A DNA stretch of 64,000 bases from Geosiphon pyriformis uo1 (lineage: Eukaryota; Fungi; Glomeromycota), in contig JAAOMT010000303.1 in NCBI GenBank assembly GCA_016748015.1, forward strand, positions 372,001 through 436,000, in the 5' to 3' direction. The notes under the pieces were generated by a model. It worked only from the letters and a program-made list of their open reading frames with translations. It had not been told where the DNA came from and did no database searches. Each line of letters starts with the position of its first letter. The stretch's first letter is position 1. Made by a program: the position numbers and the translations under genes. This document shows, piece by piece, positions 981 to 46,321 of the stretch.

Positions 981-1954
981 TGTTATTAAAGATTTTTGGT
1001 CTCTTTTCTTGAATGTTGTTAATGCTTGTCTGTTGCTAATTTCACGTTTTTTAGAAGCAGTTGAATTTTCAATAACCGAATTTATCTTCAAATTGTCTTC
1101 TATAATTTGAACTGTTAAGCTTATAAGTAGAATAGCCAATTCTGTATCAGTTACTTTGTGTAGTTATGTTGTAGTAAATGTTAACTCTTTTTCAGGAATT
1201 GCTTATCTGGAAGCTCACTAAAAATGTGTAGTTACTTTGCTATGAAAGTCAACTCTTCTACAGGAATCTCATCTGTAGGCTACCCTAATGATTATGATAA
1301 GAAAAATAAAATAAAATAAAAAAAATGTAAAAGAAATAGAATTGTCAAGAGAAATGTTTTCTATCAAAACCTGGAGTCACTAACAAATTACTGAAATTGG
1401 TAGCTAATCAATTTCAAAAATATTAGTTTGTGTTGAAAGAATTTCAAGTATAATAATCAAAAGATTTGGATTTTGAATATTTAATTTTTATTTGAAATAT
1501 GTAAAAGGTAATTTGTTTCAATTAAGATATCTAAAATAGAATACTATGGTAAGATACTATGAGAAGATATATTTTCTTGAAAAAAGAAGCTCTTTTTTTA
1601 TACAACTTGTTGTAGTACTAGTCTTTAAACTTGCATTTTTCTCTTTGCTACAATTTTTGGTAAACTAAAAATACATTTCGGCAAACTACAAGTTATTTCA
1701 CTGAACTATTGATTATTTCGGCCAATTTTTATTAATTTTGGCGAATTTTAACTATATTAAATAGTTTAGGGTATTGTGTAATTTGATTATCTTAATTTCT
1801 ATGGTACAAATCAAATTATTGATTGAGTAATAATATTTGATAATTTGATTAAATAATAAGTAATAATCGAAATAATAATAATATATGCTAATTAATAATA
1901 GAACTTATGAAGGTAATTTTATGCTAATTAATAGCTGAAATTCTACTGGTAACA
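981..1954 (-). mobile_element. Solo LTR of Gypsy family A
   Basis: Reverse complement of the LTRs at 35114/43907. TGTTA...TAACA termini. 4-bp TSD ACAC at 977-980 and 1955-1958. Confidence 0.92.
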
Positions 1955-10178: not shown

Positions 10179-11989
10179 ATGGATTTGAAGACTGCTTCAG
10201 GCAGTGATATGTCAAAAAAGAAAGCACCCAAAAGTGCTTTCCATGGTTCTGCTGGTGGTTCTTTTGCTCAGAAAAAAAAGGTGGTTTTTGACAATATTAA
10301 ACACTCTGATGATGAGAAGAATATCTCTTTAAGTAAATCTGGGCCTGGTAATAGTGTATACTCTGATGTGGATAGTCTGTCTGGTGATAATGAGGATGTT
10401 GGCATAACAGATGTAAATGGAGGGTCCCTTCTGGGTTTGGCTGCAACCACTCCCAAGATGAAACATATTGATACTGATACAATATTTGGCTTTCCGCTTG
10501 GCTCTCCTGATTTTACTATGGATGATGATAAAATTGTGCTTCCTCCTCGCTTGTCTATCTCTCTGGAAAAAAAGTGAATTGATCCTAAGATTATTAAGAC
10601 TCCTGTAGAAGTGTCAGTTAAGAGGTTATTTGTTTTAGATATTAATCTCTCAGCTGTAGAAAGAAAATCTGCAATGGCAAAAACTCAGTTAATTAAGAAA
10701 ATTTTTTCAATAGTCAATGGTTTTGGAGGGGTCACTACCTCTTCAAAATTTGAAAGGATCATTCAATCAACGTTTACTTCAGAAGAAAGCATGGAAGTGG
10801 CTGCATTATTGGTTAGAAAAAAAGAAATCGACGTAAACAGCAATCTCAAGAGACAAGGAATGAGGTCAGATTGGGGTGTGGTAATCAAAGAAATTTCCAT
10901 AAATACTCTTAAAGATATAATCATCACCATAGTATCTGAGTTTGGAGAAATTAAGTTGATCAAAATTCAACTAATAGGAATGTGGCAAAAAGCTGTGATG
11001 GAGTTTGCTAAATTGGGCCAAACTAATTCATTAGCCTTTAGGTGGTCATTTCTAATTGGTAAGAATTCTGTACAAGTAGCCAAAGCAGTGGGAGATTGTG
11101 AAATTTGGGTATCAAGGAATCAGTTCAGGGCACTTTTATTTACTTTGCCAATAGGAACTATAGCACATGATCTTGAGACTCTTCTTAATAGAGCTGGTGG
11201 GAAAACTTGTGTCATAAACAGATTTCTGAAAACTGGTAATAAGATTCATTGTACTGTTGTTGGTTTTGAATCTGATAATGACCTGAAATCTGCCTTTTGC
11301 ACAGAGCTGATTTTTGGTGGTATTAAACTTTCTTGGGCAAGGATGGATCTGGTTCGGTGTGAAAAATGTGAGAAGTTTGGTCATTCTGCTTTGAAATGTG
11401 ATGCATCTATTGCATCTCCATCCAAGCCTTTAAGAACATTTAAAAGGGTTGCTTCTGATGGATGTCATTTTCAGTTGGCAAAGTTGTATGAAAAAAAAAG
11501 TGTTCCAATATCTTGCCCCACTGCCTTTGGTGGCAAATCTTGGGCCCAGGTGGTCTCACTTGCTGGTTTTTCTGGTGGTTTTTATTTCAGTTTTGGTTCC
11601 GGCTCTGGCACTCCTTTTTTTGGTGTCTTAGATTCAGACAGTGGTTTTCCTCTCACTTCAGCCAATGACTCTTCTTTAAATATCTGTCTGGCCACTTTAG
11701 AACACTTTTTGGAGCTCTTAACAGATCAGGTGTTTGGTATATTAAAAAAGTTAGGTGACATAGAACTGGTACCAAAGGCAACCTCTTCTGGTGTTTTTTT
11801 TCCAGCCACTCCTACCTCTTTGGTGCCACTTTTGGATGTGAATATGATTTTTCCAAGGTTTTGATCTCTAAGGTGGGCAGATTGGAATCAAAAATGTTAG
11901 CTTTTGAGGTCTCAATCAGTTCAGTTTTGGAAAAGTTGAATTGTCTGTGTTCTAGTGCAGGTTCTTCAACTCCTTTTTTATCTCAATGA
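10179..11989 (+). pseudogene. LINE ORF1 (RRM-like domains, CCHC knuckle, coiled coil)
   Basis: ORFs 10179-10577 and 10611-11864 are in one frame, with CEKCEKFGHSALKC. Frameshift or deletion near 11850, then ...STPFLSQ-TGA at 11987-11989. Confidence 0.88.
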
Positions 11990-12247
11990 GTGGTTTGGTG
12001 TAGAAAGTGACTACTTGTAATGTTCAAAGTCTCAATGTTCTTGCTAAGCAGGAAGACATTGTTTGTTGACATAAAGAGTCTGGAAATATGGTTTTTATTA
12101 TTACAGAAATGAAATTGAGGTTCAGTAGCAAGTCTTGAATTGCTAACAAGTTTGAGGGTGTGCATGTTTTTATGTCTGGCTTGGATAGAGGTTTTCTGGG
12201 TGCTGGAGTTGCTGTGATTATGAACAATTCATTGGCTTGTTATGTGT
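11986..12247 (+). pseudogene. LINE ORF2 part 1: APE endonuclease N-terminus
   Basis: MSGLV*KVTTCNVQSLN...ITEMKL...GAGVAVIMNNSLACYV, showing the APE N-terminal N-V-x-G/S-L-N, E and GVA motifs. Confidence 0.85.
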
Positions 12248-13229
12248 TGTTACCAGACGAAATTAGAGATATTATTTAGCATGAAATTATCTTATAAATC
12301 CTATCATTAATTAGCATATATTATCATTTCAAATTATCACCTATTACATTAGCAAAATGTCTGAAATTATTATTTAATTAATAACCCAATTTGTACACAA
12401 CACAAATGTAACCTAATTGTGATGATTAAATTATGCAATACTCCAAACTATATAACATTCAAAAGTTTGCTAAAATTTGTAGAAATTTGCCAAAATAATT
12501 AATAGTTCACCGAAATATCTAATAGTTCACAGAAATAACTTGTAGTTTGCCAAAATGTATCTTTAGTTCAGCAAAATTGTAGAAAATAGCAAAGTTCAAG
12601 TTCATAGAATAGTGTTATAACAAGTTGTATAAAAGAAGAGCATCTCTCTTCGAGAAAATGTATCTTACTTTAGATTTATTTCTTAAAAACTGTTCCTATA
12701 CACACAAAAAAAAATAAATATCAAATAATTCAAAAAACCAAATTCTTTAATTATTGTACTTGGAAAATCCCCAAAACCCAACTAACATTTTGAAATTGAT
12801 TAGCTACTAATTTCAGTAAACTGTTAGTGACTTCAGGCCTGGATAGAAAACGTTTTTCTTGACAGAAATTCTATTTCTTTTACATTTCTTATATTTCTCT
12901 TTTATTTTCTTATTACAATCATTAGGGTAGCCTACAGACGAAATTCCTGTAGAAAAGTTGACTTTCACAGCAAAGTAACTATACATTTTTAGTGAGCTTC
13001 CAGACAAGCAATTCCTGGGAAAGAGTTGACATTTACTACAACGTAACTATATAAAGTAACTGGCATAGAATTGGCCATTCCACTTATAAGCCCAGCAGTT
13101 CAAATTATAGGAGATAATTTGAAGATAAATTCAGTTACTGGAGGTCCAACTACTTCCTGGAAACATGAATTCACAACAAATCAACATTAACAACATTTAA
13201 GAAAAGAGACCCAAAAACCTCTGGTAACA
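12248..13229 (+). repeat. A1 5' LTR (982 bp)
   Basis: TGTTACCAG...CTGGTAACA inverted termini, TATAAAA at 12628, direct repeat of 21122-22104. Confidence 0.96.
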
Positions 13230-13245
13230 TTTGGTGCTCTTCCAT
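13230..13245 (+). promoter_or_regulatory. Primer-binding site
   Basis: TTTGGTGCTCTTCC immediately after the LTR; TGG is complementary to tRNA CCA. The same TGGTGCT occurs in A2 and A3. The tRNA identity (Ile- or Thr-like) is not resolved. Confidence 0.75.
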
Positions 13246-13275
13246 GGAAATAACACAGCAACAACAAAATTCAAA

Positions 13276-16200
13276 ATGGCAACCACACCAGATGCAACAA
13301 CTCTAGAGTATTACCAATCAATTTACACCCACTATAAGCAAAGATTCAACATTCCAGACGGAATTGAAGTTGTCAAGAAATCAGTATACCAATACATTGA
13401 AAACCACATCAACAATTATCTTTTTGGAAATTACAATATCTTAGAAGTTAGAAACAACCTTAACAATAATTTAGTACACTATTTACAGTTGGGAACTGAA
13501 GACCTTAACAGTGAAACACTTGCCACTTACTTTCACGAACTTAATTTTAACATTATCAAATACTGTGAAGAAACATATCTAGTGCAGTCTCAATACTTTA
13601 TTGATTTTGAATCAGAAACAAAAACAAGCAACAAAGACAAAAACAAATTGAAGCAATACTCAAAAACCACTCCAAATACTCCAACACTACCAAAAACAAC
13701 TGCTAACTATTTACAAACACCTGAACAAAGAACCAGTTCAAAACTTCCACTTACTATCACATCTTTTCCAGCTTCACTTGCACAAGCACAAACGCCTAAT
13801 TCACCCTTAAATCAATTTACAAGACCAGAAGATTTTACATCACTTAGAAGTCCCATCAGACAACAATGACTCCTTCAAACTAGTTCCAATCTCCTTGACT
13901 TTCTAGCTGAAAATCAAAGTGAATACTTTGAGACAGCAGCAAACAAAAAAAACGAACCTGAAATATCTAAAAAAAATTCAATAGACAGTGAAAATAAAGA
14001 AGACGAAATGACAACATACATTGCAAAAATCTCTGAATTTAATGGAGAAGACATTGAGACCAGTCCCCAAGAATGGCTCGACCAAGTTACTAAAGCTGGA
14101 GATGCAAATGGATGAAATGCTGCCAGAATATTAAGAACAATTCCCTACTTTCTCAAAAGAACAGCAGGAGAATAGTTTGAAAATTTGGCCGCCTCATTCA
14201 ATGATTGGAATGCTTTCAAAGCAGCCTTCCTTGAACAGTTCACCAACAATAATACCTCCATCACCCTTCGCAATTGTTTTCGAAATATCAAACAAGAACC
14301 TTCCAAATCTGTTATAACTTATATTAGAAAATTCAACAAACTTCTTAGATGAATTCGCCAACTCAAAACAAATGATTATTATTCCGATGCTCAAATCTTG
14401 GATCAATTTATCGCTGGTCTAAAAGATAAACTAATTAAAAAGGTTTGCCCACATGTGCCAGAAGATTTAAACTCTGCCATACAGCATGCGAAAAGATACG
14501 AAATGGCCATGAAAGAAGCCAATCGCACAAAACTTGTAAATTTGGCAATTGGAGAAACCAGCTCAGCAGCTGAGAAAAAAATTGACCAACTCACAAAGAA
14601 GGTTGAAAACTATTTCACCAATCAACAACAACAGCAACTCCAAAAATATCAATCACTCCAAAGACAAAATCAAAATAACTTTGCACCACTTTCCAATAAC
14701 CAGTCTCAGAATTGCCATTACTGTAGAATCTTTGGCCACTGGAAAAAAGATTGCAGAAAGCTACAACGAGACCAACAAAATAGGAGTAATCAATGTTACT
14801 CTCCATCACAGCAATCTTATTATCAACCACCACCACCAGCTTACTATCTACCAAGACCCCAATACCAAAATAACTATTATCAGTCCGCCTCACAGCCAAT
14901 CCAACAGCAATACCGACAACCACCCACACAACATTATCAAGTACCTGCTCAAAGACTGAGTACACAAAGTCAATTCACACCACAAAACTGATACCAAGTA
15001 AACAACAATAGAATCATTTCGAACAACCAATTGGTTCCCCAAAATTCCATTCAACCAAGACCCAACCACTATCACACTTAACTCAGTTATTTAACAATGT
15101 CAAAAGAACAGGATTTTCACCATACTGTACCCTCGGAAGATAGAGCTGCAGCACAACAACAAAACCCTTCTCATAACCACACCACTATTCCACCAGCCCA
15201 AATTGCTGAAAATGCCAATCTCTCTGATATCTTTCTTTTCAAGTTTGAAGCCAAAGAATCACCATTTTTACTCAGCAATGCAGCTGCCAATAAACAAAAA
15301 ACAATCACTGCTATGTACATTGAAGAAGAAGTCGAAAGAAAGACAATTCGCTTGATCCTAGACAGTGGATCTACTGGAAGCATTATCATCTACCAGTTAA
15401 TGCAACAGTTAAAAAAAAATGTCGACCGACCAGCTCAAACAGTAATCGTTACTGCCGATGGCATGAAAAAGACCCCAGTAGAAAAAATTGACAATTTTCC
15501 ATTCACTCTTGATGGAATCACCATTCCAATCAAAGTTCTTGTAATGTATGCACCCCAGTACCAAGCTCTTGTCAGAAATGATTGGCTTTAAAAAGCCAAT
15601 GCTAATCTGAATTGGGAAACACAAGAGTTAACAATCTCCTACTAAGGACAACACGCCCGAGTACCTGTTACTTGTGGTACATTCAACAAACGCTCTAAAA
15701 AAACCCCAGCTTTTGAATTCAAACCAGAAGAGGAAAAACCTCTCATTGAAACATTTATGGCTCTTAGATCAACGTCCAACTGGGCTGATGAAACAGAACA
15801 AGAACATTTTACTCCACACTTTAAACCTGAAACCTCTGGATGGAATATCCCTTACTCAAAACCTGAACCAAAGAAACAATGCTCTTATATTCCCCTTAAA
15901 TATAAGGACTGCTACAAGAAACTATCATCAATGAGAGCCTGCATTTCACCTGAAAAAAAATATGAAAATCATACTTGTTATTACTGCAAGGCTTGCCACA
16001 GAGAACGATGGGGCCATCTAATAAAAAGAAGCAGAAAATGGGATAACACCCCTTATTTGACTTGTGGAGATATGCTACCAGAAGAATGCAATTAGATTGA
16101 TATAACCATAAGAGGAGGAGTCTGTGATCAGACCTGCCAATATGCTTTATCAATTTCAGAAAAAGTAAAAAGAGGAACACTTTTTAATACAGCATACAAC

Positions 16201-18893
16201 AGTACTTTCAACAAACTTTATCACTACTCCTATGATGCCAAGATGATTTTCGACCTAGCAATGACATTAATTAATGGAGCTACCAAAGAAGATGTTTGTC
16301 AAATGAAGGAAGCAGAATACATTGAATACACCATGAAATTAGTTGGATTCAATTATGAAGACAAAGTAGAAGTCTATCACCAAATTGCAAGTCACACTTA
16401 CCCAACCCAAGAAGCTCAAATTCAATGATTAGAGCAAATGAACATTAGGCTATGTGAAAAATACATTATGCCTTGTAATGAACAATGGTGTTCTGAATGC
16501 TATGCTCTTAGTATTCTTTTGCCCAGTGAAAATGATGAGAACAAAATTGAATTTGGAGAACCTGAAGCAATGGAAAAAATTGAAACAACACCTATCTATC
16601 TTATTGAAAATCAGTCTGCCTTACAACTTAAATACTTCAACAACAACGGACAAGGAATGAAACCTGAAAAAGCACATGAAATTGATGCTGGATATGACCT
16701 AAGATATCCAGGCAAGGATACTTTTGTTCTCAAACCCAAATCTCTTACAAAAATCAATCTCAAAATTGCACTCAAAATCCTGCCAGGAGCAATAGTTCAA
16801 ATCACCTCCCGGTCCTCTCTGGCAAGCAAAAGAATCAATGTCAGAGGAGGAATAATTGATGCTGGATATACTGGAGACATTACAGTGATGCTTTAAAATG
16901 AAACTAACAAACCATTCAAGATTGAACATGCTGAAAAAATTGTCCAAGCTATTTACCTACCTCTAATCAACATTTCGAGTTTGCAACTAGTTAATCAAAG
17001 AGAATAATTAGGAAAAAGTGATAGAGGAACCCAAGGTTTTAGTTCAACTGAATGATTCACAGTTTCAGTTAATATAGCTCTTAACACAAAGAACGAATCC
17101 CACCAGATTCTTAGACTTCCACAACCAATTACCATCTCACCCTTTGGAGAACATCCAGAAATCTACATCTGCTCAAAGCCAACAACCACACAACAAATTT
17201 TTGAGTCCAATGAACAAGTTTGCTTAGAACATAATATTTTGATCCCAAACATTTATATTCCAAAAAGAACAAAGAAAGTCTGAGTTACTTTTTACAACCC
17301 CAATAATTATCCCATAATTTTATTAAATAATTTAGAAATTGGAGTTATTCACAGTAATATATTTCAACAAGAATTACCGCAAACAGTTCCTGATTTCTCT
17401 GAAATTATTGGACATTCACTACCAAAAATCAACCCAAACCCCAGTTCTGAAAACTACCATGTTGTTATGGAAAAACTATCTTGAATCAACATAGGACAAC
17501 TTGAACCACAACAACAAACCCAGCTCAAAGAGCTAATTGTAGAATTTGCCGATATCTTTGCTGAAAACAACAATAACTTAGGAAGAACTGATTTGGTCCA
17601 ACACCAAATTTATACAGAAAATGCCAAACCAAAAAGACAACAAGCATATCAAGTTGCTCTAGAAAGCCACCAATTCATCTGAGAAGAAGTACAACAAATG
17701 CTTAACAATGGGCTCATTCAACCCTCCATGAGTCCTTGGGCTTCACCTGTAGTGCTAGTTAAAAAAAAATGGAAAGATCTGATTTTGTGTTGACTATTGA
17801 CAACTCAACAGTGTTACAATTAGAGATGCTTATCCCCTTCCCCAGATTGATGACATGTTAGATGCTTTTGGAAAATCCAAATACTTTTCAACACTAGATT
17901 TAGAAAGTGGTTACTGGCAAGTTGCTATAGATCCCAAAAACCACCCCAAGACAGCATTTACCACCCAAGGCGGAAATTACAAGTTCAATGTAATGCTTTT
18001 TGGATTATACAATGTACCAGCAACGTTTTAGAGATTAATGGATGTTGTGTACTAAGGACTTCTTTGGAAGTCAGTAGTTGTTTATCTTGATGATACTGAT
18101 GTTTATTCTCCATCATTTGAATTACACTTAAAACACCTGTGAAAAGTTTTTCAATGATTACGAAAAGCAGAACTAAAACTCAACATCGAAAAATGCTACT
18201 TTGGAAAAACAAGCTTGGCCTTTCTTGGGCATATCATTAGTAAAGATGGAATCAAACCAGACCCTGGAAAAATCAGCATTGTCAAAAAATTTTAAAACTC
18301 CTTGAAACACTACAGAACTAAGAGGATTTATAGGATTAGCATCCTACTATCAGAAGTTTATCAAAGGATTCTCGGAAATTGCAAAACCCCTCAACCAGCT
18401 CACCACCAAAAACATTGAATACAAATAGACTACCGAATACCAAAAAGCTTTTGAAATTCTCAAGAAAAAACTGACAACAGCTCCAATCCTCGCCTACCCA
18501 GATTTCAGCAACCAATTTTGACTAGCTATAGATGCTTCGTATACTGCCTTTGGTGCCATTTTATCACAACTAGATGACAACGGAAATGAGCAAGTAATTG
18601 CTTATGCTAACAGAACATTAAAACCAGCTGAGAAAAATTATCCTGCCACAGAACTAGAAACAGCAGCCATAATTTGGGCCCTACACCACTTCAACTTTTA
18701 TTTCAGGCCTAAAGAATTCGATATTATTACTGATAATATTGGACTCAAATGGCTTCAGAACAAAAATACTCAGCTGAATGCAAAACAAATCTGATGGACA
18801 GGATTTCTAGCAAACTATCAATACATAGTACATCACAAACCAGGAAAACTTCACACCAATGTTGACTGTCTTTCCAGAATGAGACAAGATTAG
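13276..18893 (+). pseudogene. A1 Gag-protease-Cys-rich-dUTPase-RT-RNase H polyprotein
   Basis: Capsid-like region, CHYCRIFGHWKKDC knuckle, LILDSG protease, dUTPase motifs, YLDD near 18083, RNase H ending NVDCLSRMRQD-TAG. Many C>T stops and homopolymer frameshifts. Confidence 0.93.
16660..17052 (+). pseudogene. dut: Trimeric dUTPase domain of A1
   Basis: AGYDL, RSSLAS, GIIDAGYTG, KIVQ and RGTQGFSST correspond to the five dUTPase motifs in order. Confidence 0.93.
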
Positions 18894-18940
18894 AAAACAC
18901 AAAAACCAACACTCAAACCAACCAAAAGAGCCAACAAACA

Positions 18941-20326
18941 ATGAATTTAGAAAACTACAACAATCTCAAACAATATTTGGAAACATTAACAATCCCAACA
19001 AATTGGTCTCCAGATGAAAAACATCAACTACAACAACAAGCCAAACAATATTTTCTACACAACAACATTATTTATCATTGAAATTTCAAAAACCCAAACA
19101 AACCACTCAGATTAATACAAGAACAGAAAAAAGAGACCATATTATACAACATGCACTCAAATCCTTCATCAACACACTTTGGAAAAGACGGCACCACCCA
19201 AAAAACACTAGAATACTACTTTTGGCCTTGAATGAGAAAAAACATTCACAAATATGTCAAATCTTGTGATAGTTGTCAAAAAAAAGGAGGAACACGCCCT
19301 ACTGAACCATTAAATCCAATCAAAGTTGGACCACCCTTTGACCGAGTTGGTATTGATTTAGTTGAACCACTATCTATCACCACTTAAAGAAACCGTTATA
19401 TTGCAGTAGCTGTAGACTATCATACTAAATGGCCCGAAGCCAGAGCCATTCAATGAACAGATGCAAAATCAGTAGCAAATTTCATCTACGAAGACATCAT
19501 TTGTAGACACTGATGTCCAATTGAACTTTTATCCAATCAGAGGACACACTTTGTGAACAACTTAATACAAGAAATTTGTAAATGATTCAATATCAAAAAA
19601 CTTCTGTCTTCGCTCTACCATCCACAAACAAATAGACTTGTGGAACATTTTAACAGAACATTGTGTGAGTCATTAGCCAAAGTCTCAACTGATTTTGAGC
19701 AAGAGTGGGATATTTTTATTTCATCAGTGTTGCTAGCATACAGAACACTAAAACAGGATACCACAAAACACACACTATTTGATTTAACTTATGGAAAGAC
19801 AGCAATATTACCAATTAGTTTCACAGTGGAAATATACCCAGCACAACCAATTAATGAAAACAATTTCCAAGAAATGCTCCAGCAAAGAGCCTACACTCTG
19901 CTTAGCACATTGGAAGAAAAACGACGAATAGCAGCCACCCATATTGAACACTCCCAAGCTTGACAAAAAGAACAGCATAATGACAAATTGCCTCCAGTCA
20001 TCAATGAATTTAAAATCGGAAACAAAGTTCTCTTACACAGAACTAAAGCTGAAAAACAATGGAGTGAAAAATTTGAAAATAAATGGGATGGACTATTCTT
20101 TATTCATGAAGTCTTAGGCAACGAATCATACAAGCTAAGACTTGATGACAAAATCCTAGCAAAAGTTGCACATGGAAATCATTTGAAACACTATCATTCC
20201 AGAAACAATTCTGAACCATTAATTCCACAAATTGGTACACATTCCCTTTTAGTTAATCCCAAAGATATTCTCCGAAACTTAGAACCAATAGTTGTTATTG
20301 AACAATCTTCTAATCTGAACACTTAA
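18941..20326 (+). pseudogene. A1 integrase, separate ATG-initiated ORF
   Basis: HHCC zinc-binding region, GIDLV / HFVN / LVE catalytic-core motifs, C-terminal W-D-G-P-F (GPY/F) module. No chromodomain. Confidence 0.9.
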
Positions 20327-20433
20327 TTTAATTTTACTAGTTATTCCCTTATAATTTAGAAACAATCAAAACAAAAAATAACATAAATACCCATACACCA
20401 AAAATAATTTTCTTTTATTTCAAATCTCTTATA

Positions 20434-21153
20434 ATAACTATTCCTCAAAACATTCAACAATTATCCCAAAAACTAATGTTAGCTTTAAAAACAATACCCG
20501 AATTATCCATTACTGTTACTGGAAACCATATTAATTATACTCAAACAGAAGTAGTTACAAATTTAGCCCCAAATTCACAAAAATATCACCCATATAAGAA
20601 GAACACAAGAAGTTATTCTGGAATTCACCTGCCAGAACTTTTAAAGCTTGCTTTAAAAGAAAACCTAATGCTCACTCCGATTAGTATTCCACCAAATGCT
20701 ACAATTCAACAAAGACTTCAACTGTGTCTCAATGAGGAAAACACTGAATATTCTCCAATTTATAGATATTTCCACATTGGAAAAACACTCTACAAATGGA
20801 AACTGGAACTTACAACAGCAAATCTCACAAAAAAAGCTATTCAGAAACAATTCCACAATAAATTCAAGACAACAGCTGGACCAACAAACAGTCACTACAA
20901 GCTCAGAGCTGCTCTTAGACTTTATGACCTATTCCACACCTGTGAAAATGTCCTACAAAACCCAATTTTACGATCTTTGAAGATTTAATACATTGGAAAG
21001 CTCACAGAACTGAAATTTCAACAATTTTCAGGCCAAATTTCTTTAATAATTTTGGATTACTATCTGGAAATTACAGACAGTACTTGAACTTCGACGGAGC
21101 TCAGTCTTGAGAAGGAGGTTATGTTACCAGACAAAATTAAAGATATTATTTAG
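20434..21153 (+). pseudogene. A1 ORF3, unknown accessory protein
   Basis: Homologous to 24546-25265 and 43219-43926. Two C>T/G>A-type internal stops. Terminates 32 nt inside the 3' LTR. Confidence 0.85.
21109..21118 (+). promoter_or_regulatory. Polypurine tract
   Basis: GAGAAGGAGG, 3 nt before the 3' LTR. GAGGAGGAGG in A2 and GAGAAGAAGA in A3. Confidence 0.85.
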
Positions 21154-22104
21154 CATGAAATTATCTTATAAATCCTATCATTAATTAGCATATATTATCA
21201 TTTCAAATTATTACCTATTACATTAGCAAAATGTCTGAAATTATTATTTAATTAATAACCCAATTTGTACACAACACAAATGTAACCTAATTGCGATGAT
21301 CAAATTATGCAATATCCCGAACTATGTAACATTCAAAAGTTTGCTGAAATTTGTAGAAATTTGCCGAAATAATTGATAGTTCACTGAAATATCTAATAGT
21401 TTGCAGAAATAACTTGTAGTTTGCCGAAATGTATCTTTAGTTCAGCAAAATTATAGAAAATAGCAAAGTTCAAGTTCATAGAATAGTGTTATAACAAGTT
21501 GTATAAAAGAAGAGCATCTCTCTTTGAGAAAATGTATCTTACTTTAGATTTATCTCTTAAAAACTGTTTCTATACACACAAAAAGAAATAAATATCAAAT
21601 AATTTGAAAAACCAAATTCTTTAATTATTGTACTTGGAAAATTCCCAAAACCCAACTAATATTTTGAAATTGATTAGCTACCAATTTCAGTAAACTGTTA
21701 GTGACTCCAGGCCTGGATAGAAAACATTTCCCTTAACAGAAATTCTATTTTTTTTACATTTTTTTTTATTTCTCTTTTATTTTTTTATTACAATCATTAG
21801 GGTAGTCTACAGACAAGATTCCTGTAGTAGAGTTGACTTTCACAGCAAAGTAACTACACATTTTTAGTGAGCTTCCAGATGAGCAATTTCTAGGAAAGAG
21901 TTGACATTTACTACAACATAACTATACAAAGTAACTGACACAAAATTGGCCATTTCACTTATAAGCCCAGCAGTTCAAATTATAAGAGATAATTTGAAGA
22001 TAAATTCAGTTACTGGAGGTCCAACTACTTCCTGGAAACGTGAATTCACAACAAATTAACATTAACAACATTTAAGAAAAGAGACCCAAAAACCTCCAGT
22101 AAGA
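21122..22104 (+). repeat. A1 3' LTR
   Basis: Direct repeat of 12248-13229; terminal CA mutated to GA. Confidence 0.96.
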
Positions 22105-23595
22105 GTGTCTAAGGTCAAAGAAATTCCTGGCTGGGTTATTTCAGTCCGACTTTTATTTAAAGGCAAGCTCTCAGTCACAATTCTGGGTTTATATGCTGGT
22201 GCCTCTTCTGGGACCAGATTTGCTTAAGCTTTGGAGGTAAACTCTATGATTGCAGAAGCTGTTAACTTTAGCATTTTTATGGTCTTGGGTGGGGATTTTA
22301 ATGAGAATGGATTTAAGAGGAGTGTAATGTTCAAGTTCTGTTTGGATTTAGGTTTGGTCAATTCGTTTACCAATCATCATTTGGCAAAAAGCCCCACATG
22401 GTACAACTCACAGGGAATTAAAAAGACAATTGATTTTATTTTCATTGGCAGTAATTTTTCTTCTACTGTCGCTGGACATTGGATATGCTCTGTATCTGAA
22501 TTTTTTGATATGGATCATGAGGCTGTTTTGGTTTCAATTGGCTTGAGTGGACTCCTAGATGTTCAGTTGAATAGCTTGTGCAAACAGGCTAACAAAGATT
22601 ATTGGAAGTTCAAAATCAAAGCCGCTGATGGCCCCAAGTGAACTGGATTTAGAGAATGTCTTTCTGCTAAACTTTTGGCAATTACTGATGAATTTCTTGG
22701 TGCTGAAACTTATAGTGATGTGGATACTATGTGGGCAGTTTTGGAGAAAGTGATGGTAGAGTCAGCCAATAAGACATTTTTGAAACATTGGTTTAGTGAG
22801 TTTCATTGTTCTAAGAACAAACTTTTCTCTAGATTCTTTGGTTTGGAATTGTTAATTGCCAAAATTGTTAAGAAGTTTGGTTTAGGCGACTTGCATAGCA
22901 TTCATTGTTTCGTGAAGACGTGGTCGACATTAGATAGTGTCAAGGCTCATGCTTTTGCTGACTTGGTTAGCTTGGGTGAGAAGTTTGAGGTAGTTCTCGG
23001 GCATTTGTTATTGGTTCATAAAGAATGCAGAAAATTGAAGATGCATGAATTAAGAGTGGCTGAAGAGGTTTCTATTAGATTGGCTATCTCAAAACACATG
23101 GAAAATTTTTGCTTTGACAAAGACAACATGATCAGAAGCATTTTGAATTGGCCTTTTTGCAAAGTAGTTTTAGATTACTTAGTGATAGATGATGAATTAA
23201 TTTTGGAATCTGGGGAAGTGAAAATCAATGTAGACAAAATCATGGAGGGTTGGACTAGGAAATAAACAGTGCCTTTGGTGTTGCCTAACCTCTGGGCCTG
23301 TCAATATGCTCCATTGAATTATGTGCAGGACTGTGCTTTTTCTGGCATGATGGATGCTGTCAGTCTGAATGAGCTGCTCTTGGTTGTTAATGGTCTGCCT
23401 GATGGTAAGGCTGCTGATTTGTCTGGCATTTTTAATGAACTCTGGAAGCATAGTAGCATTAAAGCATTGGGATTTCTTTCAAGATTGCTGAATACATGTT
23501 TGGTGGTTGGTAGTGTTCTTGTTTCTTAAAAAAGAGCTTGGGTCTCAATGATTCCCAAACCTTATGATTAGGACGGAATTCTTATGAATACACGG
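22105..23595 (+). pseudogene. LINE ORF2 part 2: rest of APE, linker, RT start
   Basis: GLYAG, GGDFN, TW..SQG...IDFIF, MDH, GKAADLSGI (K-A-x-G-x-x-G-I), IPKP; ends MNTR. Confidence 0.92.
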
Positions 23596-33453: not shown

Positions 33454-35113
33454 ATGGCCTATAGCTTTGATCGAAACTGTCAGGAAGATTCTCTTCAAGA
33501 TTCTTTCTGATAGAATTTCTTCTGCATGCAGCAAGTTTTGTGTTTTACAGGATGACAACTTTTTCATCTTAAAGGATATGTCTATCCAATCTCTTGTGTT
33601 TGCAGTTGGTTTGGTTGTCAAAGATGCTCTTAAGAAAAATCGTGAACTTTGGTTGGTTCTCCAAGACATGCACAAGGCCTATGATTTTGTGAGTTGGCAT
33701 CACTTGGAGGCTAGCTTGCGTTGAATCAAAATGTGTGATAGGTTCATTGGATTTTTTGGCAGCATACATGGTAATAGGATTAATAGAGTTATGACCAATT
33801 TCGGTTTTACTGATGGATGCAGAATGTGTGACGGATTGGATTAAGATGAGGTCTTTTCGCCTCTACTTTGGAAGATCTTCTACAATTCTCTTCTGTGCAA
33901 AGTCAAGAGACATAAACATTTATGTGGTTATTGAATTGACACTAAGTTGGTTGCAAGAACTGGTAGAATTGAGACTAGTGGTGAGTTATCTTCTTTCTTT
34001 GCTGCTGGTGTATTTGTGGATGATACAATTTGAGTTAGCAATTGTCAAACATTGATGCAATATACTCTGAATATTGCTAGTGAATTTTTTGTGATTAATG
34101 ACATTTCTATTAACAATGAAAAAACTGGCCATTTCCATTAATCAGGGTGTTAAGTCAGCTTTTTTGAACATAAGTGGTCAGCCAATTTCAATAGTCAGAA
34201 AGAGTGAAGCTCATAGATACTTGGGTATTTTTTTGTCTACCAAAGGGTTGTTTAAGCCAAGTGTGGCCAAAGCTCATTCTGATGTGCGCTTTTTTGTCAA
34301 TGTGGTACTAAAGAAGGCTATTACCAACAAGCAGTTCTCTTATTTGGTTTCAGCCGTTCTGCAGCCCATTGTTAGCTACAGGATTCAGTTTAGTTTTGTT
34401 TCATTGGGAGTTTGCCACAAATGGGATGCTATGATTTGAAAGGGTCTTAAGTCTAAGACACACTTGCCATGTGATTTTCCAGTAGAAGCAGTACATTACC
34501 CTTTATTATATGGCTTGAAGTTGTTTGAACAATTGCAGTCAGAGTGTAAATCAGTTGCCATGGTTTCATTTGCTAATGCTTCTGGCATTCTTGGACATTT
34601 GTTCAATTATAGATTTTTGGATTTGCAGATTCTGGGTTGGACTCTGATGAACCCTTTGCAGTTCCCTGTTAAGTTGTGTATCAGTTCTGTGAACAATTTT
34701 TTGGCTGGCATGGTCAAGATTTTTTTGGGTAATAAGCTGTCTTTAGCTAACAATTTGCTGAATGCTTTCCGCAGTCCTGGTGTGTTTTTTGTATCTTTTG
34801 TGTTGGGAAATAATCTTTACTTCAGTTCAGTTTGTTCATTGAAATGTTTTGGTGTTGCTTTTGGTAATAGACTGTTGGATAAAAATGGTTGGGTGATGGA
34901 GTGGAAGACCTTCCATCATTGGAAGAGGCTGGATCCGAAGGGCCCTGTCTTTTTATGGTTTGTGACTGTTACGAAATTTTTGTTGAATATGGACTCTTCG
35001 TTGGTTGTTTCTGTTGGGGCCAATCTTCTATCTGAGACAGATGTTCTGAATTCATTGGAGTTCTCTAATATACGGAGTGGGTTGCACAAAATTTGGTCTA
35101 GTTTGTTTGATGT
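33454..35113 (+). pseudogene. LINE ORF2 part 3: reverse transcriptase core and downstream region
   Basis: (R)PIALIETVRKI, LQDMHKAYD, FVDD at 34013-34024, RYLGI. Confidence 0.92.
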
Positions 35114-36172
35114 TGTTATCAGTAGAATTTTAGCTATTAATTAGCATGAAATTACTCTTATAATTCCTATAATTAATCAGTATATTAATATCATTTCAAA
35201 TTATCATTTATTATTTAATCAATTATCACATATCACGATTCAATTAAAATAATCTAATTAGTATAACAGAAAGTAAGATGATTAAATTACACAATACTCT
35301 GAACTTTGTAACATTCAAAAATTTGCCAAAATTTACAGAAATTTGCCAAAATTTATAAGAAATTCGCCAAAATTTACAGAAATTCGCCGAAATTATGAAT
35401 AGTTCACCCAAATTAATCAATAGTTCAGTGAAATAACTTGTAGTTCATCAAAATGTATCTTTAGTTTGCTGAAATTTGAGCAAAGAGAAAAAGTGCAAGT
35501 TCATAGACTAGTACTACAACAAGTTGTATAAAAAAAGAGCTTTTCTCTTCTGGAAAATGTATCTTACTTTAGATTTATCACTTAGAACCATTCTTACACA
35601 CACAAAAAGAAATAAATATCAAATAATTCGAAAAACCAAATTCTTTAATTATTGCACTTAAAAAATTCTCAAAACCCAACTAACGTTTTGAAATTGATTA
35701 GCTACCAATTTCAGTAAACTGTTAGTGACTCCAGGCCTGGATAGAAAACATTTCCCTTGATAAAATCTTATTTCTTTTACATTTCTTTTATTTTTATCTT
35801 TTCTTTTCTTATTATAATTATTAAGGTAGCCTACAAATAAGATTTTTGTAAAAGAGTTGACTTTCACAGCAAAGTAACTACACATTTTTAGTGAGCTTCT
35901 AAACGAGCAATTCCTGGGAAAGAGTTGATGTTTACTACAACATAACTACATAAAGTAACTGGCAAGGAATTGGCCATTCCACTTATAAGCCCAGCAGTTC
36001 AAATTATAGGAGATAATTTGAAGATAAATTCAGTTATTGGAAGTTCAACTACTTTTAGAAAACATGAATTTGCAACCAACAAACAGTTACAACATTTAAG
36101 AAAAGAGACCAAAAACCTCCGGTAACATTTGGTGCTTTCTCACAGAAATAACACAGCAACAACAAATTCAAA

Positions 36173-39100
36173 GTAGCAATCACACCAGACACAGCAACTC
36201 TAGAGTATTACCAGTCAATTTACACTTACTGCAAGCAAAGATTCAACATTCCAGACGGAATTGAAGTTGTCAAGAAATCAGTATATTAATACATTGAAAA
36301 CCACATCAACAATTATCTTTTTGGAAACTACAACATCTCAGAAGTTAGAAGCAACCTCTACAATAATTTAGTGCACTATTCACAATTGAAAACAGAAGAC
36401 CTGAATAGTGAAACACTTGCTACCTACTTTCAAGAACTTAATTTTAACATTATTGAGTATTGTGAAGAAAAATACCCAGTACAGTCTAAATACTCTTTTG
36501 ACTTTGAATCAGAGACAGAAACAAGCAACAAAGGCAAACAAAAATTGAAGCAATATTCAAGAACCACTCCAAACACTCCAACACTACAAAAGACATCTGC
36601 CAAACACTTGCAAACACCTAAACAAGGAACTAGTGTCAAATTACCACTTTCTATTACACTCTTTCCAATTTCACTTGTTCAACCACAAACACCAAATTTA
36701 CCACTCAACTGCTTCTCCAGACCAGAAGATTTTCAGTCACCTAGAAACCCTACTCAACAGCAGAAACCAATATCAACAAATGCCAATATCATTGATTACT
36801 TACAGGAAAACGAAAGTAATCATTCAAAAAGCTTGAAAAGTGAAGGAACTGAATCAGAACCAGAAGAAATTACAGAAAATGAAGAAGAAATGGCAACTGC
36901 TTACATTGCAAAAATCCCAGAATTCACTGGTGAAGACAATGATACCAGTCCTCAAGAATGGCTTGACAAGGTTCAAAAAGCAGGAGATGCAAATGGTTGG
37001 ATTGCAGCAAGAATGCTCAAAACAATTCCCTACTTTCTCCAAGGAACAGCAGAAGAATGGTTTGAAAACTTAGAAAAACCATTTGAAAACTGGTAAGCAT
37101 TCAAAGATGCTTTTCTACAACAATTCACTGATAACAATACCTTTATCACTTTCAGAAACTGCTTTTGCAATATCAAACAAGAAACATCTAAAACTGTTAT
37201 GACCTATCTTGGAAGATTTAACAAACTTCTCAGACAAATCCAACAATTGGAAACCAATGACTACTATTCTGATGCTCAAATTCTGGATCAGTTTATAGCA
37301 GGATTAAAAGACAAACTGATTAAGAAAATCTGTCCACATGCTCCAGCAGACTTAGCAACTGCTATTAGACATGCAAAAAGCTATAAAATGGCAATGGAAA
37401 AAGCAAATCACACCAAGCTTGTAAACCTTGCAATTGGAGAAACCAGCTCAGCAGCTGAAGAGAAAATAGACCAATTCACAAAAAAAGTTGAAAGCTACTT
37501 CACAAACCAACAACAACAGCAACAACAACCACAAAGATATCAACCCCCACAACGACACAACCAAAACAATTTTGGATCACCATCCAACAACCAATCTCAA
37601 AATTGTTATTATTGTGGAATTCCAGGACATTGGAAACGAGATTGTAGGAAATTACAAAAAGACCAACAAAACAGGAGTAATCAATATTACTCTTCACCAC
37701 AACAATCTTATTACCAATTTTCACCACCAACCTATTATTCACCAAGACCACAAAATCAAAACTACTATCCACCAGCTCCACAATCAATGCAGCAACAATA
37801 TCAGCAACCTTTACCAATTCAGCCATATCAGACACCACCCACTCAACAATATCAAGTACCAGCAAGAAAATTGGTTCAACATAACCAATTCATACCCCAA
37901 AATCAATTGCAGAATAACCACAACAGAATCAATCCAAATAACTAGTTGGTTCTCCGAAATTCGGATCAGCAAAGACCCAATCACTATCACACTCAACCCA
38001 GTTATCTTACAATACCAAAGGAATTGGATTTTCAACAAACTGCACTTTCTGAAGGTAAAGTTGCAACACCAAGATCAAACCCTTCCAACCACACCATTCC
38101 ACCAGCTCAAATTGCCCAAAATGCCAATTTTTCAGACATATTTCCATTTGAATTTGAAGCAAATGAATCACTATTTCTGCTTAGTAATACAGCAGTCAAT
38201 GAACAGAAAGTAATTACTGCTATGTATACAAAAGCTACAGTAGAAGAAAAACCCATTCGCTTAATCTTAGATAGTGGATTGGCTGGAAGTATCATCACTT
38301 ACCAGCTAATGCAACAACTCAAACAAAATGTAGACAGACCAGCTCAAACAGTTATTGTCATAGCTGATGGTATAAAGAAAACTCCAGTAGGAGAAATTGA
38401 TGATTTCCCTTTTTCAATTGATAAAATCACCATTCCAGTTAAAGTTCTTGTTATGGATGCACCCCAATACCAAGCTCTAGTCAGAAATGATTGGCTTCTC
38501 AAGGCCAATGCAAACCTAAACTGGGAAACTCAAGAACTTAAAATCTTATACCAAGGACAATATACTATAGTACCTGCAATCTGTAGTACCTTTAACAAAC
38601 AATCAGAAAAAGCTCCAGTATTTGAATTTGAAGAGGAGAAAAAAATGCCACTTACTGAAACCTACATGGCTCTTGGATTAACATCCAATTGGACTGAAGA
38701 AACAGAACAAAAGATTTTTGAAGAATCAAGGGGATGGAAGAAAGTTAGATATTCTACACCAGAACCACGGAAACAACCACCCTATATTCCACTCAAATGC
38801 AAAGATTGCAACAAAAAACTTTCATCAATGGGAGCATGTATTTCTCCAGAAGAGGAATATGAAACTCGTACCTGTTACTTTTGCAAAGCATGCCATAGAG
38901 AACGATTTGAATCTCCAAAAAAAAGTGGAAAATGGGACAACACACCTTGTCTTACATGTGGAGAAATGCTACCAGAAGAATGCAATTGGATTGATGTAGC
39001 AATGAAAGGAGGAGTATGTGATCAAACCTGTCAATATGCTCTATCAATTTCGGAAAAAGTCAGAAGAGGAACACCATTTGATGCAGTATACAACAGTGCT

Positions 39101-41794
39101 CTCAATAAACTTTACCACTACTCTCATGATGCTGAAATGATTTTTGACTTAGCAATGGCATTGATCAATGGAGCCACTGAAGAAGATGTTCACCAAATGA
39201 AAGAAGCTGAATATATTGAGTATATCATAGAATTAGCTGGATTTGATTATGAAGATGAAGTAGAAACCTACCACCAAATTGCAAGCCACACATATCCGAC
39301 CAAAGAAGCTCAAATTCAATGATTAGAGCAAATAAACATTCAATTGTGTGAAGAATGTGTCATGCCTTGTGATGACCAATGGTGTTTAGAATGTTATGCT
39401 CTTAGCATTCCTCTGCCAGATGGGAATGATGAAAATAAAATCGAATTTGGAGTATCTGAACTAGTAGAAAAACTACCAACCACTCCCATTTATCTTCTTG
39501 AAAAGCAACCATTTCTACAACTTAAATATTTTGACAACCATGGCCAAGGAATCAGACCAGAAAAAGCACACGAAATTGATGCTGAATATAACCTAAGATA
39601 CCCAGGAAAAAATACTTTGATTCTCCAACCAAAGTCTTTGACAAAAATCAATCTAAAAATTGCTCTTGAAATTTCACCAGGAACAATGGTTCAAATTGCC
39701 TCCAGATTATCATTGGCAAGCAAAGAAATCAATATTAGAGGAGGAGTTATAGATGCAGGATACACTGAAGACATTACCATCATGTTACAGAATGAGACAA
39801 ACAAACCATTCAAAATTGAACATGCTGAAAAAATTGCTCAAGCAATTTACTTACCCTTAATCAACATTTCGGGTTTACAATCAATAAACAACAGAGAACA
39901 ATTGGGAAAAAGTGAAAGAGGAACTCAAGGTTTTGGTTCAATTGGACAATTTACAGTTCCAGTAAACATAGCTCTTAATACACAAAATAAATTTCACCAG
40001 ATTCTTTAACTTCCTCAACCAATTACCATTTCACCTTTTGGAGAACATCACGAAATTTACACTTGTTCAAAACCCACTACTACTCAACAAATCTTTGAAT
40101 CCAATGAACAAATTTGTTTGAAGCATAAAATATCAATTCCAAACGTTTATATTCCCAAAGGAATGAAAAAATTTTGAGTTATATTCTACAACCCCAATAA
40201 TTACCCTATTGTCTTATTAAACAAATTAGAAATTGGAATCATATACAGCAATATCTTTCAAGATGAAAACCCTCAAATTGTCTCTAATTTCATCGAAATT
40301 GTAAAGCACACTTTACTCCCAAATTCAAATATCATTCTCACTACTGAAAACTACCACTTGTTGGAAAAAAAACTCTCTCAAATCAATATGGGTCCCTTAG
40401 AATCTCAACAACAAAGACAATTGAAACAATTGATAGCTGAATTTGCAGATATATTTGCAAAAGACAACAATGACTTGGGAAAAACAAACATTGTTCAACA
40501 TCAGATCCATACAGGAGATGCTCTATCAAAACGTCAACAAGCCTATTGAGTGCCACCTGCCAGCCACCAATTCATCAGAGAAGAGATCCAAAGAATGCTC
40601 AATAATGGATTGATTCAACCATTAAGAAGTTTTTGGGCCTTACTAGTAGTTTTAGTTAAAAAGAAAAACGGAAAAATCAGAATCTGTGTTGATTATAGAC
40701 AACTGAATAGTGTTACAATTGGAGATGCCTACCCTCTTCCAAGAATTAATGACATGCTAGATGCTCTAGGAAAAACCAAGTTCTTCTCAACTTTAGACTT
40801 AGAAAGTGGATATTGGTAAGTCGAAATAAACCCAAAAGACCGATCCAAAACAGCATTCACCACTCAAGAAAGAAACTATGAATTCAATATTATGCTTTTT
40901 GGACTCTACAATGCACTAGCAACATTCCAATGACTCATGGATGTTGTATATAAAAGACTCTTATGGCAATCAGTAGTTGTTTATCTTTATAACACTGATG
41001 TATACTTACCAAGCTTTGAAGCCCATCTTATTCATCTGTGAGAAGTTTTTCAATGACTACGGAAAGCAGAATTAAAGTTAAATATTGAGAAATGTTACTT
41101 TGGAAAAACAAGCTTAATCTTTCTTGGACACATGGTTAGCAAAGATGGAGTCAAACCAAACCCTGGAACAATTAGTGCTGTCAAAAACTTCCAAACCCCA
41201 AAAAATACCACAGAGCTACAAGAATTTGTAGAATTAGCCTCTTATTATCGAAAATTCATTAAAAGATTCTCAGAAATTGCCAAACCACTCAATTATCTCA
41301 CCAATAAAAATGTGCCATACAAATGGACTGAAGAACAACAAAAAGCATTTGAAATCCTCAAAACAAAGCTGACAACAGCCCCAGTTCTTGCTTATCCAAA
41401 CTTCAACAAACGATTTCAACTAGCCACTGATGTTTTACACATAGCATTTGGTGCTATCTTATCACAAATAGATGAAAAGGGGCAAGAACAAGTCATTGCT
41501 TATGCTAGTAGAACACTCAAACCAACAGAACTAAAATACGGCTCAACTGAATTAAAAGCTGCTGCAGTTATTTGGGCTCTTAAACATTTTTAACAATATC
41601 TGAAGAATGGAAAAGAATTTGACATAATAACAGACAACATTGGCCTCAAATGGCTCAATAAAAAGAAAACTGAACAAAGTGCCAAACAGTCTCGATGGAA
41701 TGACTTCCTAGCAGACTACAGATATATTGTACATCACAAACCAGGAAAACTACATACCAATGTTAATAGCCTCTCAAGAATGAAACAAAATTAA
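36173..41794 (+). pseudogene. A3 Gag-PR-Cys-rich-dUTPase-RT-RNase H
   Basis: CYYCGIPGHWKRDC, LILDSG, GVIDAGYT, RGTQGFGSIG, RT (YLDD decayed to YLYN), RNase H ending LSRMKQN-TAA. Confidence 0.93.
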
Positions 41795-41851
41795 TACCAA
41801 CAACAATTCCACCACAACTTACCAACTTACCAACAAAATAACCAAACAAGA

Positions 41852-43076: not shown

Positions 43077-43260
43077 ATTTTAGAATAATTCTCTAATAAA
43101 AACACAAAGACAAAAATAGTAAATAATTACAAAACACCCAAACCCAAAAACAAATAAAAACCCCATATCCAAAAATAATTTTCTTTATTCTCTCTTTTCA
43201 TAATTAGTCAATTTTATCATGATTATTCTCTGAAACATTCAACAAATATCCCAAAAATTA

Positions 43261-46188: not shown

Positions 46189-46321
46189 TGTTGTTTTGTC
46201 TGGCTTGAGTGGCTAGCCACATGTGGAAAATGTGTGAGTTGTATCTAGTTTTAATCACTTAGTCTGATTTTGTATACTAGATAGCAGTTGGGACTTCACT
46301 CATTAAAAGCTAAAATAAAAT
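46189..46321 (+). other. LINE 3' UTR with palindromes, ATTAAA and A-rich tail
   Basis: GTGGCTAGCCAC palindrome at 46209-46220 and a TATCTAGT...ACTAGATA stem. Homologous to the tails at about 5480-5600, 6508-6630, 7340-7465, 51960-52050 and 53510-53630. Confidence 0.8.

Follow-up and report, generated by a model that had tools for sequence, protein, structure and literature searches.

A 64,000-nt stretch of the Geosiphon pyriformis uo1 genome (contig JAAOMT010000303.1, positions 372,001 to 436,000 of the forward strand; hereafter the window) contains three decayed copies, E1, E2, and E3, of a Ty3/Gypsy element of a fungal lineage. With a probability of about 0.95, we read it as an element of three open reading frames (ORFs), in which Gag-Pol extends to RNase H, the integrase is encoded separately, and a conserved third ORF (ORF3) follows. 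Ty3/Gypsy elements and retroviruses normally package integrase within Gag-Pol. A first-pass annotation, made from the DNA letters alone, had proposed such a tricistronic organization; the architecture did not collapse to a standard single pol, and ORF3 was found to be conserved. In the portions of the literature available to us, including papers on transposable elements of arbuscular mycorrhizal fungi and a survey of fungal long terminal repeat (LTR) elements, a Gypsy element with stand-alone integrase and ORF3 was not found described; Repbase, GyDB, or supplementary files could catalogue it. A dUTPase between protease (PR) and reverse transcriptase (RT), also seen here, is already known in fungal Gypsy elements. 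Newly contributed are a fold model of ORF3, a synonymous-site signal preceding ORF3, the pattern of U3 arrays, a non-AUG Gag extension, and a survey of the spacers upstream of integrase.

Self-comparison of the window bore out the claim of three copies from two subfamilies, with E2 92% and E3 ~77% identical to E1. LTRs of ~982 nt with TG..CA ends, 4-bp target-site duplications (TSDs), a primer-binding site (PBS), and a polypurine tract (PPT) were present in every copy. Premature stops (35, 17, and 15 in the three copies) mark the elements as dead. RNase H is followed by a stop in all three (TAG, TAG, and TAA). Integrase and ORF3 each occupy an ORF of their own, and purifying selection between subfamilies is evident for both. 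The ratio of non-synonymous to synonymous rates (dN/dS) between subfamilies was below 1 for all regions, at 0.15-0.25 for enzymes and capsid and 0.33 for ORF3 (95% confidence interval 0.22-0.48). All 95% intervals stayed below 1 at a kappa of 4; at a kappa of 8, the linker of the Gag extension alone touched 1. Purifying selection therefore acts on every domain between subfamilies, including ORF3. Values for E1 against E2 were near-neutral (0.37 to >1, depending on region).

Taken by itself, the window leaves the split unproven, because in E2 and E3 integrase continues the frame of RNase H across the spacer and because two other TGA codons, both of CpG type (positions 16426 and 18140), are common to all copies. 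These shared codons, together with the load of premature stops, would also fit the view that the stop and the extra ORFs are artefacts of C>T decay in a standard gag-pol element. Yet both the split and ORF3 recur in intact relatives, and ORF3 combines its low dN/dS with a stable length (200-245 residues in 88 of the 120 listed ORF3 proteins), which makes such an artefact very improbable. None of the 139 CAA/CAG-type codons had turned into a stop in more than one copy.

To judge from the sequences of its relatives, which settle the matter, the split is a lineage-wide property. RNase H was in view in 41 of 80 metagenome loci and out of view in 39. All 17 loci showing RNase H among the top-ranked 41 were split before integrase, as was L043, giving 18; 19 distant loci were fused, and four distant ones (L052, L059, L060, and L064) were broken. 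The latter were scored as split by the script, but they group with fused elements and were not counted as split. Across the 18 split loci, the distance from the stop to the integrase ATG ranges from -11 to 727 nt, all three frames occur, and 14 are out of frame, which excludes read-through as a general rule. Integrases of the split metagenome loci carry their own conserved Met, and 97 of the 120 best integrase homologues start with the same Met motif; five of the 120 are named as Rhizophagus irregularis. A protein search spanning the junction (372-1185 aa) returned just four fused proteins, at 23-33% identity, and a search of viral contigs gave nothing useful. In a quick integrase tree, 25 of 27 split rows grouped together (SH-aLRT 95), and in a careful tree 21 split rows did so (91/94). 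By these comparisons, the lineage appears wider than the three copies, reaching R. irregularis and many metagenome contigs. Besides the in-frame spacers of E2 and E3, two points weigh against this interpretation: (i) the search for integrase proteins was limited to 52-807 residues, so that fused forms could not appear; and (ii) descent of the split from one origin is neither rejected nor shown (approximately unbiased test, p = 0.115 for integrase and 0.131 for RT-RNase H).

Translation of the stand-alone integrase

Made outside Gag-Pol, the integrase would need another route to the particle or the cDNA. Termination and re-initiation across a short AUG-free spacer may produce it, a mechanism to which we give even odds. 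Five of the 18 junctions fall within -11 to +5 nt, and one reads TAATG (L012); UAAUG stop-start coupling has been shown in the fungal virus Cryphonectria hypovirus 1 (CHV1; PMC2699510). Nine spacers of 30-163 nt together contained a single ATG where 6.8 were expected, and re-initiation agrees with the majority of junctions. Some observations are at odds with re-initiation: four of the 18 spacers, that of L001 among them, are long (278-727 nt, with 3-12 ATG each) and do not fit a scanning ribosome, and the window spacer (47-57 nt) has no stop-start overlap.

In some families at least, the long spacers point to a separate RNA. Foamy viruses express Pol from its own mRNA. The same three-ORF element could thus make integrase from a subgenomic or spliced mRNA instead of by re-initiation, which we hold possible but rather less probable. 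The wide range of spacer lengths, with the long ones rich in AUG, and the presence of another ORF just 5' of integrase in L018 speak for an integrase mRNA. On the other hand, synonymous sites before the integrase start (15, 17, and 12 of 30) are not suppressed at the end of RNase H, where a promoter or acceptor would lie, no shared acceptor motif was seen by eye in the 18 upstream 40-mers, and the stop-start overlaps at five junctions are at variance with it.

Ribosomes reading through the RNase H stop would instead yield an ordinary Pol-integrase fusion. The spacer is indeed open and in frame in E2 (51 nt), in E3 (57 nt), and in four of the 18 relatives. Read-through is nonetheless improbable: integrase lies in another frame in the other 14 relatives, its Met is conserved, and spacer peptides are dissimilar between the two subfamilies; moreover, AAA or TAC comes after the RNase H stop, whereas three relatives have CTA after their in-frame stops between PR and RT.

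Additional coding stretches were noted around integrase in some loci. Directly upstream of the stand-alone integrase, L018:509-1234 encodes 242 residues matching the restriction endonuclease family Mrr_cat_2 (E 5.5e-9). L012:7404-8255 encodes an extra 284 residues between integrase and the ORF3 homologue, bringing that element to four or more ORFs. Long tails of no clear family (~310 and ~580 residues) follow RNase H before the stop at L007:3452-4438 and L020:4900-6702.

ORF3 and the signals of the LTR

ORF3 starts with ATA in E1 and E2 and with ATG in E3. As had been claimed, it is a non-Env ORF running into the LTR: no Env family occurred among the Pfam matches of 28 ORF3 proteins, a comparison that involved no dedicated membrane-helix predictor. 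A database search gave 203 matches, and the 120 listed were all G. pyriformis proteins (identity up to 89%). ORF3 homologues followed integrase in 13 of the 21 metagenome loci that extend 350 nt or more past it, with an intact one at L006:2239-2712; a profile was built from eleven of these loci, with no Geosiphon row, and the two further loci were found with it. This profile ranked the three ORF3s of the window at the top of a six-frame scan (E 8e-4 to 1e-2) and, at E<1e-3, recovered 68 of the 120 Geosiphon ORF3 proteins and not a single integrase. Two metagenome proteins link the Geosiphon group and the group of the relatives. In one clade and in L018, ORF3 is absent and integrase runs nearly straight into the LTR, with the split kept. 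Judging from these loci, ORF3 is dispensable.

Modeling of the ORF3 core on the wider alignment gave, with confidence, a compact 148-residue domain of seven helices (predicted local distance difference test (pLDDT) 89, predicted TM-score 0.83), whereas modeling on near-identical sequences alone had yielded a poor result (pLDDT 47) and an uninformative fold search. Conserved motifs are Y/F-x-L/I-G and A-x-R-x-Y-x-L-F, and lysine plus arginine outnumber aspartate plus glutamate in the cores of 12 of 13 relatives. The model could be aligned with a sigma-F helix-turn-helix (HTH) fragment (Z 4.5, root-mean-square deviation 2.3, 57 aligned residues), and its best VIA match reached Z 5.6 over 59 residues. 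Foldseek found no match at E<=0.001 in PDB and the viral models, which shows neither a new fold nor the absence of an HTH; no PDB sequence matched either. PHROGs gave weak matches alone (best phrog_23683, in three of 21 members), and a homodimer model computed without an alignment scored 0.06, which is evidence neither way. DUF1016_N weakly matched six of 28 members (best E 0.0028; Atlas 0.89). The predicted product of ORF3 is likely a small nucleic-acid-binding regulator of the element. Counting against this, the DUF1016_N match is weak and occurs in just one of the 21 members of the wider alignment.

Suppression of synonymous sites was confined to two places, the opening 160 nt of the Gag frame and the 180 nt at the end of integrase (2/30 versus 34% overall, P 0.0004 per window, with 97 overlapping windows). 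The latter lies just where a promoter or splice signal for ORF3 would be expected. ORF3 may accordingly be made from a subgenomic or spliced RNA with a signal overlapping the integrase 3' end, which we slightly favor. The low synonymous divergence could also reflect local recombination between subfamilies, a point against this view. For the full mechanism, with a re-initiated integrase and ORF3 acting from its own RNA as a nucleic-acid-binding regulator, the chances appear balanced.

The U3 region carries the phased palindrome array described earlier, with z-values of 8.7 and 10.4 against local shuffles (-0.7 to 1.5 for three internal controls). The number of units varies between LTRs, even between the two of E3, and relatives possess different 9-12-nt repeats in the same place. 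Repeats with z>=6 were detected in six of eight scored ORF3-bearing loci and in none of five clearly ORF3-less loci, the pattern a family-specific binder would give. Tentatively, ORF3 might bind the array and tune LTR transcription or silencing; self-regulation of this kind, as originally proposed, is plausible but less likely than not. Several findings caution against it: (i) the ORF3-less loci are one clade plus L018, and the link between ORF3 and array thus amounts to one independent pair in the tree; (ii) the ORF3-less L018 and L027 show weaker repeats (z 2.7 and 4.2), and two ORF3 loci lack strong ones (z 1.5 and 2.0); and (iii) LTR starts are uncertain in L013 and L020, and several arrays consist of AT-rich low-complexity units, not palindromes.

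Alternatively, and with a similarly low probability, ORF3 could act on RNA rather than on the LTR, as a re-initiation transactivator similar to the caulimoviral TAV protein, a silencing suppressor, or an adaptor between integrase and particle, and the U3 array would then be used by host factors, for the phasing of nucleosomes, or as a source of small RNAs. An AA/TT period of 10 nt is also compatible with DNA bending, and the basic charge of ORF3 suits RNA as well as DNA. The 3'-most position of ORF3 and its possible own RNA resemble ORF VI of cauliflower mosaic virus (CaMV; PMC5902531), and the palindrome-rich U3 regions of Sireviruses are small-RNA hotspots (PMC4728375). However, the ORF3-less clade retains the split integrase, which indicates that integrase can be expressed and packaged in the absence of ORF3, and according to the part of a review available to us a TAV-like protein is unknown outside Caulimoviridae (PMC5902531). 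A still more far-reaching picture, in which an ancient lineage combines re-initiated free integrase with an LTR-binding regulator of unplaced helical fold co-evolving with the U3 arrays and represents a living-type intermediate between Gypsy and Ginger1, seems unlikely.

Hairpins of the 3' half of the LTR were examined as well. Covariation, which had been claimed for R/U5, was not seen among the seven LTR copies (98 of 500 shuffles were equally high), and folding energies were unremarkable (z -0.05 to -1.9). Between the two ~67-nt duplication units, though, three stem pairs differ when the commoner letters are compared, and all three have changed on both sides so that pairing is kept, two of them by double transversion; this part of the claim stands. 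The hairpins more likely lie in U5 or the leader than at the RNA 5' end because they are located ~300 nt past the TATA box. An Rfam scan gave no match at E<=1. The 3' half (12700-13170 and the matching LTRs) differs by 2-8% between subfamilies versus 15-40% in U3, reflecting strong constraint or recombination. The primer-binding sites of the two subfamilies (13232-13249 and 36130-36147) differ at several positions, which suggests different primer tRNAs.

The Gag-Pol frame, decay, and surroundings of the copies

Codon-by-codon comparison of the copies revealed a single frame of ~1,870 codons from 13276 to the stop at 18891, comprising the Gag extension, capsid, CCHC knuckle, PR, Cys-rich domain, dUTPase, RT, and RNase H (Pfam). 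Indels between subfamilies total multiples of three within this frame; private frameshifts of E1 occur near 17761 and 18284. The coordinates of all features are listed in Table 1.

Leader and Gag extension (12661-14003) contain 4-5 ATG per copy where 13-14 are expected (P~0.005 per copy, the copies not being independent). The leader is thus AUG-poor, as stated in the first-pass annotation, and the extension has no internal Met, but its first codon (13276) is ATG in E1; it is GTG in E2 and GTA in E3. GUG is the likeliest original start because of the G>A bias of the decay. We rather favor a model in which ribosomes would start at GUG near 13276 to give a long Gag(-Pol) and leak to AUG 14008, the earliest in-frame AUG common to all copies, to give a short one. 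A non-AUG first start and long AUG-free scanning are described for rice tungro bacilliform virus (RTBV; PMC5902531). The helical part of the extension has a dN/dS of 0.22. Neither the extension nor the Cys-rich domain had a Pfam match, and their Atlas scores were 0.82 at most.

The Cys-rich domain and the dUTPase between PR and RT, both part of the earlier description, are in frame with the flanking domains and under selection (dN/dS 0.25 for dUTPase). Between them, the TGA at 16426-16428 is shared by all three copies. It probably arose by parallel CpG decay; a programmed read-through stop is unlikely, because its context is TGA-TTA and a sense residue occupies the matching site in three other Geosiphon gene models. 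In three relatives, an in-frame TGA-CTA, which we take to be a read-through-type context, occurs between PR and RT (L001:870, L020:3358, and L027:1585). Some families likely separate Gag-PR from RT-RNase H, too.

Among the 80 metagenome loci, dUTPase, Cys-rich domain, and a Gag extension of the E1 type had no match; a shorter Cys cluster was present in two of seven loci inspected across PR-RT. All three are local cargo of this subfamily. The six features originally joined into one system (AUG-poor leader with Gag extension, Cys-rich domain with dUTPase, free integrase, ORF3, U3 array, and hairpins) are each largely real, but three of these parts are unmatched in the 80 loci and ORF3 is absent from at least one split-integrase subclade. 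The proposed role in counter-defence found no support: dUTPase in that place is known (PMC2864245), nothing shows counter-defence, and an enzyme lowering dUTP pools would not prevent CpG-biased decay.

Table 1. Position of elements and features in the window
Feature	Position	Strand	Remarks
E1	12248-22104	+	Full-length Ty3/Gypsy copy; TSD GTGT
E2	33453-23596	-	Full-length copy, subfamily of E1; TSD CCAT/CCGT
E3	35114-44899	+	Full-length copy, second subfamily; TSD ATGT; gap of 160 nt and run of 35 N in integrase
5' LTR of E1	12248..13229	+	TG..CA; TSD GTGT
U3 array	12466..12576	+	Imperfect palindromes TTYRNNRAA, 10/20/21-nt spacing
TATA-like box	12628..12635	+	Downstream of U3 array; TATAAAA kept in 7/7 LTRs; putative promoter
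Tandem ~67-nt duplication	12932..13048	+	Two short hairpins per unit
10-bp hairpin, 5-nt loop	13099..13123	+	3' half of LTR
PBS-like 18-mer	13232..13249	+	TGGTG..., G at position 16; putative, tRNA-type
Gag N-terminal extension	13276..14007	+	243 codons, no internal Met; likely non-AUG (GUG) start
Synonymous suppression, Gag start	13279-13435		
Gag core	14008..15250	+	Capsid, CCHC knuckle, Q/P-rich tail; Pfam Retrotrans_gag, zf-CCHC in E2/E3
Aspartic protease (DSG)	15330..15640	+	dN/dS 0.15
Cys-rich domain	15860..16520	+	Several CxxC, no family; dN/dS 0.18; putative zinc binding
dUTPase	16663..17046	+	Between PR and RT; PF00692 E 2.4e-17 (E3), 1.6e-16 (E2)
RT (YLDD) and RNase H	17481..18893	+	Stop at 18891-18893
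Spacer, RNase H stop to integrase ATG	18894..18940	+	A/C-rich, AUG-free; 47, 51, 57 nt in E1, E2, E3
Stand-alone integrase ORF	18941..20326	+	461 codons; YPYY-like N-terminus, HHCC, DDE, GPY/F-type SH3 tail, no chromodomain
Synonymous suppression, integrase end	20147 to integrase end		
ORF3	20434..21153	+	239 codons; overlaps PPT and first 32 nt of 3' LTR
Polypurine tract	21109..21118	+	
3' LTR of E1	21122..22104	+	
Solo LTR, related subfamily	981..1954	-	TSD GTGT
LINE-like pieces	10182-12247, 22105-23595, 33454-35113, 44900-46300		Target sites GTGT, CCRT, ATGT

The two LTRs of E1 differ at 57 of 982 nt, and 54 of these differences are transitions. C>T and G>A accounted for 420 of 662 polarised changes (63%), at a rate of 0.31-0.33 per CpG site versus 0.07-0.11 at other sites (~3-4x). 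Repeat-induced point mutation (RIP) was ruled out as the cause of decay, an excess at CpA being absent. The "strong C>T attack" noted earlier thus corresponds to C>T-biased decay with a CpG-biased pattern, probably of the methylation type, not to RIP, and the decay would have taken place after insertion. Transposable elements of R. irregularis are reported to carry CG methylation (10.1101/2021.03.30.436303).

E1, E2, and E3 break one LINE-like element (ORF1, endonuclease-like region, and RT), whose pieces resume beyond each insertion. Besides the solo LTR, a partial LTR was detected by self-comparison near 54.7-55.3 kb. Decayed RT fragments are located at 59224-59883 and 63183-64000, one of them 66-69% identical to the RT of the E1-E3 family. 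Another repeat family carries tandem arrays with a 12-nt unit (TAATTATTGAYC-like) and is present in three AT-rich copies (47974-48045, 55451-55582, and 62428-62571). No tRNA genes were found in the window.

Relation to known elements

LTR sequences make up 41.2% of the G. pyriformis genome (PMC11952901). At least 120 annotated "hypothetical proteins" of this fungus are ORF3, which affects gene counts in mycorrhizal-type fungi, and R. irregularis has intact relatives (with integrases such as GBC53574.1, GET57239.1, and GET66802.1), making tests feasible. A broad and successful lineage with free integrase represents an alternative to Gag-Pol packaging and raises the questions of how downstream ORFs are translated and how integrase reaches the cDNA.

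Two LTRs, TSD, PBS, PPT, the order gag-PR-RT-RNase H-integrase, and an RVT_1-type RT place the element in Ty3/Gypsy (Metaviridae). Integrase inside the pol ORF is the usual state of this group, although order, not fusion, separates the superfamilies (PMC3248453); here, the three copies and 18 relatives have a stop after RNase H instead. The integrase lacks the C-terminal chromodomain of chromoviruses: the E3 tail matched SH3_Tf2-1 alone (Pfam), and no chromodomain family was annotated among the 120 best integrase homologues. The third ORF is not Env-like as in errantiviruses.

Complex retroviruses encode regulators such as Tax of human T-lymphotropic virus, Tas of foamy viruses, and Tat and Rev of human immunodeficiency virus. 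The label "complex-retrovirus-like" holds by analogy only, through an extra 3' ORF, LTR repeats, and leader hairpins, with no Env and no sequence link. Likewise, the cis-regulatory LTR region of maize Sireviruses contains a rapidly evolving array rich in palindromes, but these elements belong to another group, Ty1/Copia, and in the accessible text their palindromes are not tied to an element-encoded binder (PMC4728375). Polycistronic expression with similar traits includes the non-AUG start of RTBV, UAAUG junctions, and CaMV P6, a 3' ORF on its own RNA (PMC5902531, PMC2699510). These examples are pararetroviruses, an RNA virus, and non-LTR elements; LTR elements use frameshifting according to a review (PMC5902531), and in the Geosiphon element such mechanisms are proposed from sequence features.

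Among fungal Gypsy elements, PosPlaTy3-5 of Postia has a dUTPase between PR and RT, and dUTPase domains occur in Phanerochaete and Tuber Tmt1 elements (PMC2864245; PMC6431247). The position of the dUTPase is the same, and some of these elements carry an "additional ORF with unknown function"; they are of the chromodomain type, and the text available to us does not state a separate integrase, whereas the Geosiphon element has no chromodomain, a separate integrase, and an upstream Cys-rich domain. The TRP28 ORF of plant Retand (Tat) elements is a further parallel, being a conserved additional ORF that separates pol from the 3' LTR in elements with family-specific tandem repeats and proposed, by analogy with retroviruses, to encode a DNA-binding regulator (PMC11963269). 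TRP28 ORFs are antisense and the repeats internal to the element, whereas ORF3 is in sense orientation, overlaps PPT and LTR, and is accompanied by repeats in U3.

The YPYY motif is common to Athila/Tat-related Gypsy integrases (including Gypsy-1-I_RO and DGLT-A1) and Ginger1 transposases (PMC2836005), and no Gypsy element with integrase in its own ORF was found mentioned in the accessible part of that paper. In the Geosiphon element, the stretch of ~40 residues with Y-P-Y/F-Y before HHCC, matched by eye to the published description, looks similar, and DDE, GPY/F, and ends of the TGTNR type are shared. With Ginger1 it further shares the 4-bp TSD and a stand-alone protein; it differs by its direct LTRs and RT-RNase H, where Ginger1 has terminal inverted repeats and no RT, and by the absence of an OTU/Ulp1 tail. 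An integrase of YPYY-like type that stands alone, has a start codon of its own, and is accompanied by a 4-bp TSD bears on the question of whether Ginger1 originated from Gypsy elements (PMC2836005).

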